From an uncultured bacterium (GTDB lineage Bacteria; Patescibacteriota; Minisyncoccia; Phycocordibacterales; Phycocordibacteraceae): a stretch of 64,000 nt of DNA. Positions within the stretch are counted from its first letter, which is position 1. Each line of letters begins with the position of its first letter. Both the position numbers and the translations under genes were made by a program. Below the pieces are notes generated by a model. It was not told where the DNA came from, searched no databases, and was given only the letters and a program-made list of their open reading frames with translations. Where the stretch lies: positions 464,682 to 528,681 of the forward strand of contig CAVXAH010000001.1 of assembly GCA_963759775.1 (NCBI GenBank). The letters are read 5' to 3'. Of this stretch, positions 2,842-10,280 are shown piece after piece.

Positions 2842-3438
2842 TTATATAAGTGGACTGCACAGTTCTCGAAGTCGCGCGATGCCGCGATGAATACGTACCG
2901 ACGCCACATTTTCTGATACTTGAAGGACCGCGGCGATTTCCTTCGGGGATAAATCGTCAATATAGCGGAGGGTTACGGCTTCGCGAAGTGTTTCGGGAAG
3001 TTGTGGAATCAAGCTACGAATCTTCTCAACAAGAAGAGCATCACTCAATTGCCCCTCCTTCTCATTTCGACTACCCACTAAAAGAAGTTCGCTCGCTGCT
3101 ACCGGATTGTTTTCAGTGAGGGTATCAAGTGACTCCTCTTTCGCTTTTCGGTACTCATCAATAATGAGATTGTTGAGAATTCGGTAGAGAAAGCTTTTAT
3201 GGCTTCGGATTTCTCCTCCGGTCCGCGCGTATTCCCACGCCTTAAGGAATGTTTCTTGAGTGAGGTCCGCGGCACGTTCTCGGCCCGAAAGACGAAAGGA
3301 CGCATGTCGGAATAAAGCGTCGGCATGCGCATCAAACGCTTCAAGAAACGCTTGCTCAAAGGAAGTTGACATGCGAGATATATCCCCTAAACGGGTTGCC
3401 TCTATCATACTCCTTGCATACATAGGTAGTGCTTGCAT
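2842..3438 (-). CDS. ECF-type RNA polymerase sigma-70 family factor
   Basis: Region 2 (DLTQETFLKAWEY...FLYRILNNLIIDEYRK) and region 4 (LPETLREAVTLRYIDDLSPKEIAAVLQVSENVASVRIHRGIARLRE). The likely true start is ATG 3372 (MSTSFEQ), which has an AGGGGA Shine-Dalgarno upstream. Confidence 0.85.
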   Translation of the reverse strand: MQALPMYARSMIEATRLGDISRMSTSFEQAFLEAFDAHADALFRHASFRLSGRERAADLTQETFLKAWEYARTGGEIRSHKSFLYRILNNLIIDEYRKAKEESLDTLTENNPVAASELLLVGSRNEKEGQLSDALLVEKIRSLIPQLPETLREAVTLRYIDDLSPKEIAAVLQVSENVASVRIHRGIARLRELCSPLI

Positions 3439-5574: not shown

Positions 5575-6151
5575 CTATAACGTTGCTAAAGGACTCGTAG
5601 TTGAAGTCCCACAAGTGCGTTAAAAGATCTTCTCGGTTTACCACTTCGTTTGGGTGTCGAAGAAAATACTCAAGGAGTCCAAATTCTTTGAGCGTGAGCG
5701 AAATAGGTTCTCCGTCTTTATGAACCGTATGCTCTGCCGCACTAAGTTCAATGGTGCCGACCCGAATAGTTTCCGGAAGCGCATCGTGTGGGCGGCGCAT
5801 GAGCGCCTGGATGCGTGCAACCAATTCCTCAAACGCGAACGGCTTAACGAGGTAGTCGTCCGCACCGGAAAGAAGAAGTTGTACTTTGGTTTCCGTTTCA
5901 GCCCGCGCCGTGAGCACCAGGATAGGGGTAACGATGTTGCGGGCACGCATCTCGCGACAAATGGCGTAGCCATCAAGTGAAGGGAGCATAAGGTCAAGAA
6001 TCACCAAATCGTAGTCCTTGTGATGGAGCGAGATTCTGGTAAGTGCCTTTTCCCCATCATCAATCGTGTCAACCGCAAACCCCTTCGCCGCAAGGCCACG
6101 TGAAATGACGTCAGCAAGCTTCTTTTCGTCTTCTACGAGTAATATGCGCAT
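5477..6151 (-). CDS. OmpR-family response regulator
   Basis: MRILLVEDEKKLADVI...DLVILDLMLP...LVLTA...YLVKPF receiver, plus a winged-helix C-terminus (LTLKEFGLLEYFLRHPNEVVNRE...VRGIGYRLRA). The start is set at MRILLVEDE. Confidence 0.9.
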   Translation of the reverse strand: MRILLVEDEKKLADVISRGLAAKGFAVDTIDDGEKALTRISLHHKDYDLVILDLMLPSLDGYAICREMRARNIVTPILVLTARAETETKVQLLLSGADDYLVKPFAFEELVARIQALMRRPHDALPETIRVGTIELSAAEHTVHKDGEPISLTLKEFGLLEYFLRHPNEVVNREDLLTHLWDFNYESFSNVIDVHVKNLRRKLDPNNSEGVLETVRGIGYRLRA

Positions 6152-7271: not shown

Positions 7272-7640
7272 TTAGGAGCGGCCGTATCTGTCCTCAAGCC
7301 GAGTAATATCTTTCTCGTCAAAATCGCCAAACGCAATTTCAAGAAATATAAGGCGATCGTCTTTGCATTCAACTCGATGTTGCATACCCGCTTTTATGAA
7401 AAATGAGTCCCCAACCTTGGCTTCCTTGGTAGTGTCTCCAGCCGTTACGAGACCGCTTCCCGTAAGCACATACCAAAACTCATCTCGGTGCGTATGAGTT
7501 TGTAAGCTGAACGCTTGACCGGCATTCACCGTGATCATTTTAACCGTCGTCTTTTCGTTCAAGGTAAAACGTTCAAAAGTACCCCACGGGCGTGTTTCTT
7601 TGTCGTGAGAACTGAGTCCTTCCATAGGGGAAGTATACAA
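7272..7640 (-). CDS. Cupin-domain protein, type II phosphomannose isomerase-like
   Basis: RPWGTFERF...VKMITVNAGQAFSLQTHTHRDEFWYVLTGSG...MQHRVEC...ITRLEDRYGR is the classic ManC C-terminal cupin signature. Confidence 0.8.
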   Translation of the reverse strand: MYTSPMEGLSSHDKETRPWGTFERFTLNEKTTVKMITVNAGQAFSLQTHTHRDEFWYVLTGSGLVTAGDTTKEAKVGDSFFIKAGMQHRVECKDDRLIFLEIAFGDFDEKDITRLEDRYGRS

Positions 7641-7798
7641 GATTTTTTAAACAGGATTGAAAAGCGTGGAGAAATAACGTACTCTCGGGGAGTCGAACGA
7701 AATCGCCGCTGTAAGCTTTTCCTCTCGGATTCGGAAAAGCTTTCCTCGGGCTCGTTCGGCGCTCAAGAATGTACCAACACATTCTTGATGCCTCACTC

Positions 7799-8051
7799 GC
7801 CGATGTAGCTCAGTTGGTAGAGCAACTCCATGGTGGGCCGCAAGCCCTGCCCACGAAATCTGCAAGGAATTCGTGAATCCTGAATTACGGTCAATAGCTC
7901 CACAAGCCAAGACCGTGGCGCAACGTGCGCCCGAACGACTGACAAAGGTACCCCTCGCGGGTAAAGATACAGTCTAGCCCTTCTCTTCGTGGTTAGAGAG
8001 AGAAGGTGTAAGCGAAGGAGTAGGTCCCCAGTTCAATTCTGGGCATCGGCT
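7799..8051 (+). tRNA. tRNA-Thr (GGT) interrupted by a group I intron between positions 36 and 37
   Basis: 5' exon 7799-7834 GCCGATGTAGCTCAGTTGGTAGAGCAACTCCATGGT. 3' exon 8015-8051 AAGGAGTAGGTCCCCAGTTCAATTCTGGGCATCGGCT. The spliced product is a perfect 73-nt cloverleaf with anticodon loop ATGGTAA. Confidence 0.8.
7835..8014 (+). ncRNA. Group I (IC3-like) self-splicing intron, 180 nt, no internal ORF
   Basis: The 5' exon ends in U and the intron ends in G (gtaagcG|AA). A P1-like pairing GGU|GGGC with GCCC(U)GCC is possible. The AAGATACAGTCTAG core resembles the AGAUAUAGUC of cyanobacterial tRNA-Leu introns. A GAAGGTGTA 3' segment resembles the Azoarcus tRNA-Ile intron. Confidence 0.7.
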
Positions 8052-8135
8052 CAAGTTTCAAACATACTATCGTTTATCAACAGCCGACCACTTTACGGAA
8101 CCGTGAACGGTCTCCATTTGCGGTAGCATTGTTGT

Positions 8136-8591
8136 ATGCCAATCCCAAAGAAACCACGCACACCATGTCTTGCGTGTGGGAAGGAGCCATATAGATCATT
8201 TTATAAATATTGCAGTAATGTGTGCCAGCAGGAATTTCAATATCTTGCATATCTCAACCGCTGGAAGGCCGGGAAAGAAAACGGATTAAACGCGATGGGA
8301 ATAGTATCTGATCCTGTCAAAAGGTATCTTCGCAAAAAGTACGATAATAAATGTTGTCTTTGTGGATGGTCAAAAGCCAATCTTAAAACAGGCGTAGTTC
8401 CATTGGTTGCCGATCATATTGATGGTAATTGGCGAAACAATGTTGAAGAAAATCTGCGCCTCCTCTGTCCAAACTGCGATGCATTGACTCCAACCTTTTC
8501 AGCCCTTAACAGGGGGAACGGAAGACCAAGTCGAGCAATAAGCAAAAGAACTCTCGAAGCTCGTGTTCTCGCGCAAAGCAAGCGGTCGTGA
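8136..8591 (+). CDS. HNH endonuclease with an N-terminal Cys-rich region
   Basis: HNH core DHIDGNWRNNVEENLRLLCPNCD, plus CLACGK...YCSNVCQ and CCLCGW Cys clusters. TAGCAT -10 box 6 nt upstream of the ATG. Confidence 0.85.
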   Translation: MPIPKKPRTPCLACGKEPYRSFYKYCSNVCQQEFQYLAYLNRWKAGKENGLNAMGIVSDPVKRYLRKKYDNKCCLCGWSKANLKTGVVPLVADHIDGNWRNNVEENLRLLCPNCDALTPTFSALNRGNGRPSRAISKRTLEARVLAQSKRS

Positions 8592-8613: not shown

Positions 8614-8686
8614 GCCGCCCTAGCTCAGTTGGTAGAGCACGTCATTCGTAATGACGGGGTCCCGAGTTCAATCCTCGGGGGCGGCT
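8614..8686 (+). tRNA. tRNA-Thr (CGT)
   Basis: GCCGCCCTAGCTCAGTTGGTAGAGCACGTCATTCGTAATGACGGGGTCCCGAGTTCAATCCTCGGGGGCGGCT. Anticodon loop TTCGTAA. Confidence 0.92.
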
Positions 8687-8693
8687 CAAAAAT

Positions 8694-9386
8694 ATGGAAA
8701 TTACAACAACAAACACTCTAGATGAAGTAGCGTCCCGGCGCGAAGGGCGCCGCGATGCATTCAAGAATCTTGCTTTTATTTTGATTGCCGTTGGGGCGGC
8801 ATATGTTGTCACGGTTTCAATCGGTGTTGAGGGGCTTCAGCATTTAGTGGAAAGGGCGGGCGTGTGGGGCTTGGTCGCCGTCATTCTCCTCAAGATGACG
8901 ACCATCATTGTGGTGCCGCTCTCGGGTGGTCCTATATACGCAATTGCAGGTGCGGCGTTTGGTTTTTGGCAGGGACTCGGTATCACATTTATCGGCGACG
9001 TGCTTGGTTTTTCTGTCGCATTCTACCTGAGCCGTTTCTTTGGAAGGCCAATTATTAATGTGTTTGTGCCACAGTCACAGTCTGCTTTTATAGAGAAAAT
9101 GCTCATTCAGGGCTCTGAGCTCAAATCATTCCTCAAGGCACGTCTCGCATTTACAGGCTTTCCTGAAGTCTTTGCATACGCGGCAGGCCTTACCAAGGTT
9201 TCATTTCCGGTTTTCATAGCTGCTCAAATGGCGCTCCACACACCAGTTACGGCTCTCGTAGTCTTGTTTGGAAATGCACTCCTCACCGGCAACCCATTGT
9301 TCTTTGCTACTGCGGCCGTTGCCGCTATTCTCCTTGCGGTAGTCGGCGGGTGGTGGTTTAAGCGCGACCTTACGCAGGAAGCCTAA
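8694..9386 (+). CDS. TVP38/TMEM64 (DedA/VTT-domain) family membrane protein
   Basis: VPLSGGPIYAIAGAAFGFWQGLGITFIGDVLGFSVAFYLSRFFGRP is the VTT-domain signature. Polytopic membrane protein. Confidence 0.8.
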   Translation: MEITTTNTLDEVASRREGRRDAFKNLAFILIAVGAAYVVTVSIGVEGLQHLVERAGVWGLVAVILLKMTTIIVVPLSGGPIYAIAGAAFGFWQGLGITFIGDVLGFSVAFYLSRFFGRPIINVFVPQSQSAFIEKMLIQGSELKSFLKARLAFTGFPEVFAYAAGLTKVSFPVFIAAQMALHTPVTALVVLFGNALLTGNPLFFATAAVAAILLAVVGGWWFKRDLTQEA

Positions 9387-9404: not shown

Positions 9405-10280
9405 ATGGAAGGGAACGAGAAACGACTCGCAGAGCTTGAAGCGCAAATGGGAGCGTCTGATTTTTGGGCAGACAAGGACGCCGCACAGAAGCTTGTGCGC
9501 GAATATCAAACTCTTAAAGAAGGGGGTGGCGAAGGGCACGACAGCGGCCACGCAACGCTCGCCATCCTCGCGGGTGCCGGCGGAGACGATGCCGAAGACT
9601 TCGCGCGCATGCTGCGCCGCATGTATGAGGGACATGCGGCGCAGAAGGGCTGGGGCGTGCGCGAACTTCATGCAAACGAAAACGACCACGGCGGCTACCG
9701 AAACCTCGTTCTTGAGTTTACGGGCGCAGGTGTGTACGGCCGCTTGAAGCACGAGTCAGGCGTGCATCGCCTGGTGCGCATCTCTCCATTTAACGCAAAC
9801 GCGAAGCGTCAAACTTCCTTTGCTCTGGTGGAAGTATTGCCGACTCTGATGCCAACCGACAAAGTGGAGCTCAGTCCGGACGATATTGAGATGACGTTTG
9901 CAAAAGCTGGAGGCGCCGGTGGGCAAAATGTGAACAAGCGCGAGACCGCCGTGCGTATTCTCCATAAACCGACCAATCTTTCAGTGCACGTCTCAAGCGA
10001 GCGTTCACAGCAGGCGAACCGTGAAAAGGCATTAGACCTTTTGAAAGCAAAGATTTTTGCGCAAAGAGAGGCGGAGCGGCAGGCGGTGGCCGAAGGCCGT
10101 TCAATTGCAAAAACCACGGCAAACGAGTGGGGAAGCCAAATCCGCTCGTACGTTCTCCATCCCTATAAAATGGTGAAAGACCACCGTACCGGCCACGAGT
10201 CCGGCAATCCAGACAAAGTGCTTGAAGGCGACCTCGATGGTTTCATAGACGCCACACATGCGGTGGGGCACGCCCCGTAG
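9405..10280 (+). CDS. prfB: Peptide chain release factor 2, short form (291 aa); no frameshift site seen
   Basis: SPF tripeptide ([16 protein letters not shown]), GGQ motif ([17 protein letters not shown]), [11 protein letters not shown]. The N-terminal domain is much shorter than in the 365-aa E. coli RF2. Confidence 0.9.

Follow-up and report, generated by a model that had tools for sequence, protein, structure and literature searches.

What interrupts the tRNA gene at positions 7799-8051 of this stretch, and how could a mature tRNA be obtained from it? The stretch, referred to here as the window, comprises 64,000 nucleotides (nt) of contig CAVXAH010000001.1 from an uncultured bacterium. 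Reading the sequence from 7600 to 8300, we found two tRNA halves of 36 nt (7799-7834) and 37 nt (8015-8051) separated by an insert of 180 nt (7835-8014), so the coordinates and lengths given in the initial annotation of this DNA were exact. The 5′ half reads GCCGATGTAGCTCAGTTGGTAGAGCAACTCCATGGT and the 3′ half reads AAGGAGTAGGTCCCCAGTTCAATTCTGGGCATCGGCT. From the evidence presented below, we consider that this region is very probably the tRNA-Thr(GGU) gene of a Paceibacterota bacterium, in which a 180-nt group I intron of the published 'divergent' Thr lineage lies between U36 and A37. The parts of the gene are as follows.

7799-7834, + strand: 5′ exon of tRNA-Thr(GGU), with the acceptor 5′ strand, D arm, anticodon-stem 5′ strand, A32 U33 and the anticodon G34 G35 U36 (sequence, ARAGORN with introns, cloverleaf stems in the fold)
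7835-8014, + strand: group I intron of 180 nt (covariance model R1 and alignment A1, both described below)
8015-8051, + strand: 3′ exon, with A37 A38, anticodon-stem 3′ strand, variable loop, T arm, acceptor 3′ strand and discriminator U; CCA is not encoded (sequence, ARAGORN)

As had been proposed, the joined halves give a tRNA with the anticodon loop AUGGUAA, and its cloverleaf is intact: folding of the 253 nt recovered all four stems (acceptor, D, anticodon and T) around the insert, as well as a series of hairpins within it, with an energy of −97.3 kcal/mol (z = −3.9) that was matched by none of 200 shuffles. Neither ARAGORN in its default mode nor the Rfam tRNA model called a gene at 7799-8051; these tools detected five other tRNAs in the 64-kb window, tRNA-Thr(CGU) at 8614-8687 among them. 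When introns were allowed, ARAGORN reported a split tRNA at 7799-8052, placed the 180-nt intron at 34/35, and named it tRNA-Arg(GCG). The 36/37 junction had initially been chosen as the only one that restores a 7-nt loop. This argument did not hold, since all eight in-register removals of 180 nt leave such a loop and a tRNA accepted by ARAGORN, with the identities Arg(GCG) (four junctions), Pro(GGG) (one) and Thr(GGU) (three). The choice itself was correct, because among these eight junctions only 36/37 has U at position −1 and G as the final intron base.

The identity of the gene was further examined by comparing the joined exons with uninterrupted genes. They are identical at 62 of 73 positions (85%) to the tRNA-Thr(GGU) at 1470-1545 of L133, another Patescibacteria contig with the same gene neighbourhood as the window, and the differences in the stems are compensated. 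A second contig, L135, also carries an uninterrupted tRNA-Thr(GGU) gene in an equivalent neighbourhood. The description of the joined tRNA as very close to Escherichia coli tRNA-Thr(GGU) was overstated: the top matches in this species, annotated as tRNA-Thr, reached about 80.6% identity over 72 nt, and the one that was inspected has the anticodon UGU. The gene of L133 is the closer comparator.

To place the insert among other sequences, one genome per species was scanned for the R...S core with the pattern GACTGACAN{12,42}AAGATACAGTC, and at least 120 loci were obtained; the pattern was matched by seven viral contigs. With introns allowed, ARAGORN reported a split tRNA at most of these sites, with labels that varied among Thr, Arg, His, Pro and Leu. 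In at least 106 split genes (the window and 105 loci), there is a junction at which U precedes the intron and G closes it, and in each case this junction gives the loop [A/U]UGGUAA, that is, tRNA-Thr(GGU) split at 36/37. The insertion after position 36, likened at the outset to that of the Azoarcus tRNA-Ile intron, was observed in all 106 split genes, window included. Among the matches listed, there were 105 distinct intron sequences (window included) with lengths of 158-243 nt, and 95 distinct mature tRNAs. Of the genome loci left over, most were truncated at the end of the locus or overlooked by ARAGORN, and R1 recovered eight of these loci. Nearly all carriers are metagenome-assembled genomes (MAGs) of Patescibacteria, including Saccharibacteria, Paceibacterota, Yanofsky-, Kaiser-, Wolfe- and Nomurabacteria, and others; a few bear other labels.

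The intron sequences were aligned with plain MAFFT, unfitted to any structure, to give alignment A1 (105 sequences, 362 columns). In A1, 94.2% of the cells pair, versus 76.8% in shuffles and 30-45% when the partners were slid by 1-3 columns. Compensatory changes were observed at 37 of 51 pairs, and the covariation score was 0.488 versus 0.164; on any measure, the observed values were reached by none of 500 shuffles. The helix order of the window intron from P1 to P9 is the canonical one of group I introns, P3/P7 pseudoknot included, and is composed of the following elements.

7832-7851, + strand: P1, formed by exon nucleotides G7832 G7833 U7834 with the guide C7851 C7850 G7849, which places U.G at the 5′ splice site (A1)
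7852-7875, + strand: P2 hairpin with a GCAA (GNAA-type) tetraloop L2 at 7862-7865 (compensatory change in 10 of 10 pairs)
7879-7881, + strand: P3 5′ strand CCU, whose partner is 7946-7948 (A1)
7887-7916, + strand: P4 (7887-7892 with 7911-7916) around J4/5, P5 (7897-7899 with 7905-7907) and J5/4; contains the P and Q core elements (A1)
7917-7931, + strand: P6 hairpin, 7917-7922 with 7926-7931 (compensatory change in four of five tested pairs)
7932-7945, + strand: J6/7 (7932-7936), P7 5′ strand GACUG (7937-7941) and J7/3 (7942-7945), the R core element (sequence; aligns with R of an RF00028-positive intron)
7946-7948, + strand: P3 3′ strand AGG (A1)
7949-7963, + strand: P8 hairpin, 7949-7953 with 7959-7963 (A1)
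7964-7974, + strand: J8/7 AAGAUA (7964-7969) and P7 3′ strand CAGUC (7970-7974), the S core element (sequence)
7977-8013, + strand: P9.0 (G7977 C7978 with G8012 C8013) enclosing P9 (7979-7986 with 7999-8006) (A1)
8014, + strand: terminal guanosine (omega G) at the 3′ splice site (junction with U(−1) and terminal G, the same in 106 split genes)

This anatomy, its conservation and covariation, the insertion site and the family membership of the window intron are direct observations. In P1, both G-C pairs are kept in 105 of 105 sequences and the U.G pair in 104 of 105, which agrees with the earlier proposal of a wobble formed through GCC together with a terminal G; no other in-register junction provides this combination. 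P1 is extended by the pairing of 7835-7838 with 7844-7847, where the pairs covary (GC, AU and UA types). The L2 loop reads G-N-A-A in at least 90% of the A1 sequences. P3, a pseudoknot of 3 base pairs (bp), is 99% paired, and its three pairs change from CG to UA in five, five and eight sequences, the window intron itself having one of these U-A variants. P4 is 100% paired and nearly invariant, and covariation was found at four of four pairs of P5, at five of five tested pairs of P9, and at five of five pairs of P8, whose outer three are each changed on both sides in 58-60 sequences. The P9.0 pairs adjoining the terminal G are GC in 62 and AU in 37 sequences, and CG in 59 and UA in 35. The core elements P, Q, R and S of the window intron read AAUUACGGUC, AAGACCGUGG, ACGACUGACA and AAGAUACAGUC; we recognised them against the consensus of Michel and Westhof (1990). 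The S element aligns with AAGAUAUAGUCC of an RF00028-positive intron. G7937-C7974, at the J6/7 end of P7, is the putative guanosine-binding pair. No open reading frame (ORF) and no terminal repeats were found in the 180-nt insert.

A covariance model, R1, was built from A1 and has 205 positions and 48 pairs. In the 64-kb window, it gave a single match, at 7829-8020 (172 bits, E = 1e-51), well above anything expected by chance; the relatives score 140-185 bits, and the window copy covers all 205 positions. R1 also matched, over their full length, two introns of a viral locus, L121, that are positive with the Rfam group I model RF00028: 2738-2921 (36 bits with R1, 58.4 bits with RF00028) and 2951-3136 (19.6 and 50.1 bits, respectively). 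In the alignments of R1 with the RF00028-positive introns, P4/P5, R and S line up; these two introns are among several elements on L121 and on another viral locus, L122, that R1 matched full length. Together with the helix anatomy, the covariation in 105 sequences and the literature discussed below, these cross-matches support the proposal that a group I intron follows U36 of tRNA-Thr(GGU).

In the minus strand of both viral loci (L121, 2524-5992; L122, 4110-7578), at least seven group I-like elements are packed into about 3.5 kb. Five of them reach the gathering score of RF00028 (148-437 nt) and four match R1; ARAGORN called no tRNA around them. The RF00028-positive introns of 148-174 nt in L121 and L122 led us to drop the idea that the Thr introns are the smallest natural group I introns. 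The shortest member of the Thr family (L039, 5919-6088) has 158 nt and lacks P9, its P9.0 being followed almost directly by the terminal G. A relative outside tRNA was found at 5920-6125 of viral contig L124 (93 bits with R1), where the upstream exon ends in GGT and the guide is the same GCC; because it does not lie in a tRNA, the lineage of the Thr intron also occurs outside tRNA-Thr. Weak full-length matches to R1 (20-29 bits) adjoin the int-alpA RNA (RF02996) in L070 (5415-6591) and L123 (5409-6585), and could be additional small elements of group I type associated with a prophage or phage. No match was obtained by blastn against phage records.

The tRNA-Thr(GGU) gene had initially been regarded as an undescribed host. 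It has in fact been described: three complete Patescibacteria genomes, two of Paceibacteria and one of Saccharimonadia, have tRNA-Thr(GGU) split at 36/37 (Nakagawa et al., mSystems 2026, PMC13011429). According to the same study, these 'divergent group I introns', a term taken from Castelle et al. 2018, are missed by RF00028; for two of the three Thr cases, ARAGORN gives Arg(GCG) and an intron at 34/35, and tFind (Williams 2020) maps the Thr introns correctly (PMC13011429). The host tRNA, the insertion site, the phylum and the behaviour of the tools (the RF00028 miss and the Arg(GCG) 34/35 call of ARAGORN) are common to the published introns and the window, and no substantive difference was noticed in this comparison of descriptions. 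The window intron is a further member of the described family, and what is new here is the larger membership, the covariation-tested structure and the observation of an endonuclease slot. The sample holds 105 distinct members versus the three published, and adds covariation support for P3 and P9.0. A family member is present in the complete Wolfebacteria genome CP011209.1 (L054), an unconfirmed candidate for one of the published cases.

Regarding the class of the intron, Azoarcus tRNA-Ile(CAU) and Agrobacterium tRNA-Arg(CCU) carry IC3 introns that resemble that of the window in the 36/37 site, the small size, the absence of an ORF, the pairing of the anticodon in P1, the GNRA-type P2 loop and the ten-helix plan. 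Unlike them, the window intron has a P3 of only 3 bp and is RF00028-negative. Two segments had been taken as evidence of likeness to IC3 introns. The first, AAGATACAGTCTAG (7964-7977), is indeed a core segment, as it comprises J8/7 and the P7 3′ strand ('S'). The second, GAAGGTGTA (8002-8010), belongs to the P9 3′ strand and tail, and its likeness to Azoarcus is not positional: the GAAGGUGUA motif is located in P9 and the 3′ tail of the window intron, not in J6/7-P7, which is presumably where the similar motif of Azoarcus lies. The proposed affinity to IC3 is unsupported, since the P3 of the window intron is unlike that of IC3 introns, the published tree groups the Thr introns, on a long branch, with the Patescibacteria introns of subgroup IA, and IC received none of the Patescibacteria tRNA introns (PMC13011429). 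Those IA introns include the ones that lie in tRNA-Asn and in tRNA-Asp, which share with the Thr introns the phylum and the location in the anticodon loop, are likewise often missed or misassigned by the tools, and are their neighbours in the tree. They differ in that their site is 35/36, they are RF00028-positive, and their self-splicing has been shown in vitro; some of them also have internal homing endonuclease genes, whereas the Thr intron has no internal ORF.

Group I introns splice in two steps initiated by guanosine, and the anatomy described above suggests how this would proceed in the window. In the precursor, the anticodon G34 G35 U36 would pair with the guide G7849 C7850 C7851 to form P1, leaving the U.G wobble at the 5′ splice site, and the P4-P6 and P3-P8 domains, tied by the P3/P7 pseudoknot, would fold around it. 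A free guanosine bound at P7, at the predicted site G7937-C7974, would attack the bond 3′ of U36. The terminal G8014, set by the 2-bp P9.0, would then occupy the guanosine site, and the 3′-OH of U36 would attack after G8014, so that U36 is joined to A37. The anticodon stem (ACUCC/GGAGU) probably keeps the exons together during this process. The guide GCC reads the anticodon GGU, and therefore the intron would be specific to one isoacceptor; every member sits there. The window intron is predicted to be catalytic and independent of protein cofactors.

Several points weigh against the interpretation of this region as a member of the divergent group I lineage that splices out of tRNA-Thr(GGU). RF00028 did not match the window at its gathering score (50 bits), nor the region 7700-8150 at E ≤ 10. 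The P3 of 3 bp is atypical for group I introns, and so is a 5-bp P7 without an evident bulged nucleotide beside the presumed guanosine-binding pair. The conservation of the P7/J8-7 core is circular, as the relatives were gathered by that pattern, and the invariance of P7 and J8/7 in the sample carries no information. The published splicing assays were done with Asn and Asp introns only, none with tRNA-Thr introns (PMC13011429). Finally, the copy number of tRNA-Thr(GGU) is known within 64 kb only, and a second intact gene could exist elsewhere. Regarding the first point, a scan with the Rfam group I model had been proposed as a check that could refute the intron. We consider the negative result unsound as a refutation, because the model has no bacterial seed sequences (Williams 2020, bioRxiv 10.1101/2020.01.27.920355) and is reported to miss these introns. 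At the gathering score, which is a detection threshold and not a defining property, the relatives L057 and L009 escaped the model as well, and at E ≤ 10 it gave full-length sub-threshold matches exactly on the intron in two of 11 relatives (L073, 22.8 bits; L008, 15.4 bits).

Some of these points could also mean that the element derives from a group I intron but cannot splice alone, and needs a protein cofactor or splices only in vivo. The short P3, the small size of the relatives (158-243 nt), with L039 lacking P9, and a lineage that is labelled 'divergent', is RF00028-negative and has published splicing assays only for its Asn and Asp neighbours would fit such a condition. In contrast, the helices and junctions of the catalytic core are all present and strongly constrained in A1, and no maturase-like gene is consistently linked to the intron, given that the HNH endonuclease gene described below accompanies only 11 of the 106 split genes, window included. 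We regard this dependence as unlikely.

That the intron is decayed and lies in a dead tRNA gene, with tRNA-Thr(GGU) supplied by another gene, would be compatible with the 64 kb of the genome examined here. However, the window copy scores well within the range of its relatives over every position of R1, its core helices are unbroken, its sole difference in P3 is a compensated U-A pair, and its exons form an intact cloverleaf. In addition, tRNAscan-SE found one Thr tRNA fewer in the published intron-bearing complete genomes than in most of the other genomes of that table (PMC13011429). From these results, a dead gene seems very improbable. The gene at 7799-8051 is presumably the only tRNA-Thr(GGU) gene of the cell.

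The tRNA-Arg(GCG) with an intron at 34/35 has in its favour that it is the choice of ARAGORN, that it leaves a 7-nt loop, and that the intron would end in G. At this junction, however, the −1 base is G, there is no U.G wobble, and the register of P1 and P9.0, fixed in A1 by conservation or covariation, would be broken. A20 is an identity element for arginine, and the tRNA of the window has U at position 20. Furthermore, the alternatives given by ARAGORN for the relatives range over Arg, His, Pro and Leu but GGU is what the U/G junction yields in every case, the exons match an uninterrupted tRNA-Thr(GGU) at 85% identity, and the same miscall has been published (PMC13011429), all of which makes an arginine tRNA a highly implausible identity for this gene. 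Another type of intervening sequence, either an intron of the protein-spliced bulge-helix-bulge kind, which usually sits at 37/38, or an insertion element, would account for the absence of an Rfam match but deserves practically no credence in a bacterial genome context, given the canonical helix order with a pseudoknot backed by covariation, the cross-recognition with RF00028-positive introns, a fold in which the 5′ junction is inside P1 and the 3′ junction is single-stranded next to the anticodon stem instead of forming a bulge-helix-bulge, and an insert without ORF or terminal repeats.

With this insert, read as a group I intron in tRNA-Thr(GGU), the gene that decodes the threonine codons ACC and ACU escapes the Rfam tRNA model and ARAGORN in its default mode, and ARAGORN mislabels it as Arg(GCG) when introns are allowed. 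As a consequence, genomes that carry it seem to lack a tRNA, and completeness estimates of Patescibacteria are affected. The lineage is apparently far commoner than the three published cases, as it was found in at least about 110 species-level genomes, and it now has a secondary structure supported by covariation and a usable covariance model.

The window is part of a bacterial chromosome, and the genes near the split tRNA gene encode two-component regulators, RF2, FtsE, FtsX and CTP synthase; a DUF5667 protein is also encoded in the window. The order tRNA-Thr(GGU) - RF2 - FtsE - FtsX - CTP synthase recurs in many loci. The closest locus among the matches listed is L083, from a Paceibacterota MAG, whose RF2 and FtsE are 82% and 85% identical to those of the window, with a range of 69-85% for RF2, FtsE and FtsX, and whose gene order is shared. 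The host is assigned to Patescibacteria because of these identities and the gene order in common with L083. Two further features lie immediately downstream of the intron-bearing gene.

8136-8591, + strand: free-standing HNH endonuclease gene, 151 amino acids (aa), outside the intron (PHROG HNH families, best E = 9e-17)
8614-8687, + strand: uninterrupted tRNA-Thr(CGU) gene (ARAGORN, Rfam tRNA model)

The HNH gene has the same orientation as the intron-bearing gene and starts 85 nt 3′ of it; the HNH product has an N-terminal CxxC zinc ribbon and an HNH motif, with a sub-threshold match to Pfam HNH_3. Its family has at least 1,751 clusters at 90% identity, and the named ones come from Patescibacteria. 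In the window, the gap of 562 nt between tRNA-Thr(GGU) and tRNA-Thr(CGU) is filled by this gene; in L083, the gene is absent and the gap is 0 nt. In general, the GGU-to-CGU spacers with the HNH gene measured 498-566 nt (six loci) or 1,054-1,602 nt (three), and those without it 0-105 nt (nine loci) or 249-1,719 nt (nine). The gene accompanies 11 of the 106 split genes, that is, the window and ten loci. In nine loci that were selected by the HNH gene, it lies about 20-50 nt 5′ of tRNA-Thr(CGU), overlapping it in one case; its upstream neighbour is an intron-bearing GGU gene in four of them, an uninterrupted GGU gene in two, and in three there is no GGU gene. Because the upstream neighbour varies, the HNH gene goes with the Thr-Thr spacer, and its association with the intron is not strict.

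Free-standing homing endonuclease genes located beside ORF-less introns were reportedly described by Bonocora and Shub in 2009 as 'collaborative homing' in T7-like phages. The arrangement found here is similar in that an HNH gene adjoins a gene with an ORF-less intron and has a patchy distribution, being absent from L083. It differs in that the HNH gene is also found beside uninterrupted GGU genes or without any GGU gene; a strict linkage between intron and HNH gene, as in collaborative homing, is weakened by those loci. We tentatively propose, as a possibility to which we give well below even weight, that the Thr(GGU)-Thr(CGU) spacer is a slot in which free-standing homing endonuclease genes are accommodated as cargo, and that the HNH enzyme might target the conserved DNA of tRNA-Thr and carry the ORF-less intron along by co-conversion. 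If true, this would provide a horizontal route for an 'immobile' intron lineage, and the published survey, which sought endonuclease genes only inside introns, would have overlooked it.

Other occupants of this spacer were also observed. In L013, L026, L030, L052 and L116, an unrelated protein of about 225 aa is encoded at the HNH slot, 30-430 nt 3′ of the split tRNA-Thr. A helix-turn-helix domain forms its N-terminal part, and the motif LYWGEGxK...NSDP is conserved. A LAGLIDADG endonuclease was suspected but not confirmed: the Pfam, PDB and PHROG searches recognised the helix-turn-helix, to which PHROG added only single-member HNH matches. In L131, a fragment like a tRNA 5′ half (GCCTGGATAGCTCAATGGTAGAGCAATC...) is present at 2408-2440, upstream of an HNH gene (2501-2971), and this locus has no intron and no complete GGU gene; the fragment may be the remnant of a rearrangement at the Thr-Thr slot.

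A tyrosine integrase gene was found 21-38 nt after the intron-bearing tRNA-Thr in L047, L118 and L057, the last of which is an isolate assembly labelled Niastella populi CCTCC AB 208238 (NZ_LWBP01000002.1). In L057, the integrase gene is followed by TrwB/HerA-like and resolvase genes, an arrangement that suggests a putative integrative element inserted at the intron-bearing tRNA-Thr. Being an isolate assembly, L057 is also a possible culturable carrier of the intron. Lastly, the RF2-like ORF of the window (9405-10280, + strand) has only 291 aa, and its match to the PCRF domain starts at profile position 97. The VTT-domain ORF upstream ends at 9386, which leaves no room for the usual N-terminal part of RF2, and the corresponding genes of the relatives encode 291-303 aa.

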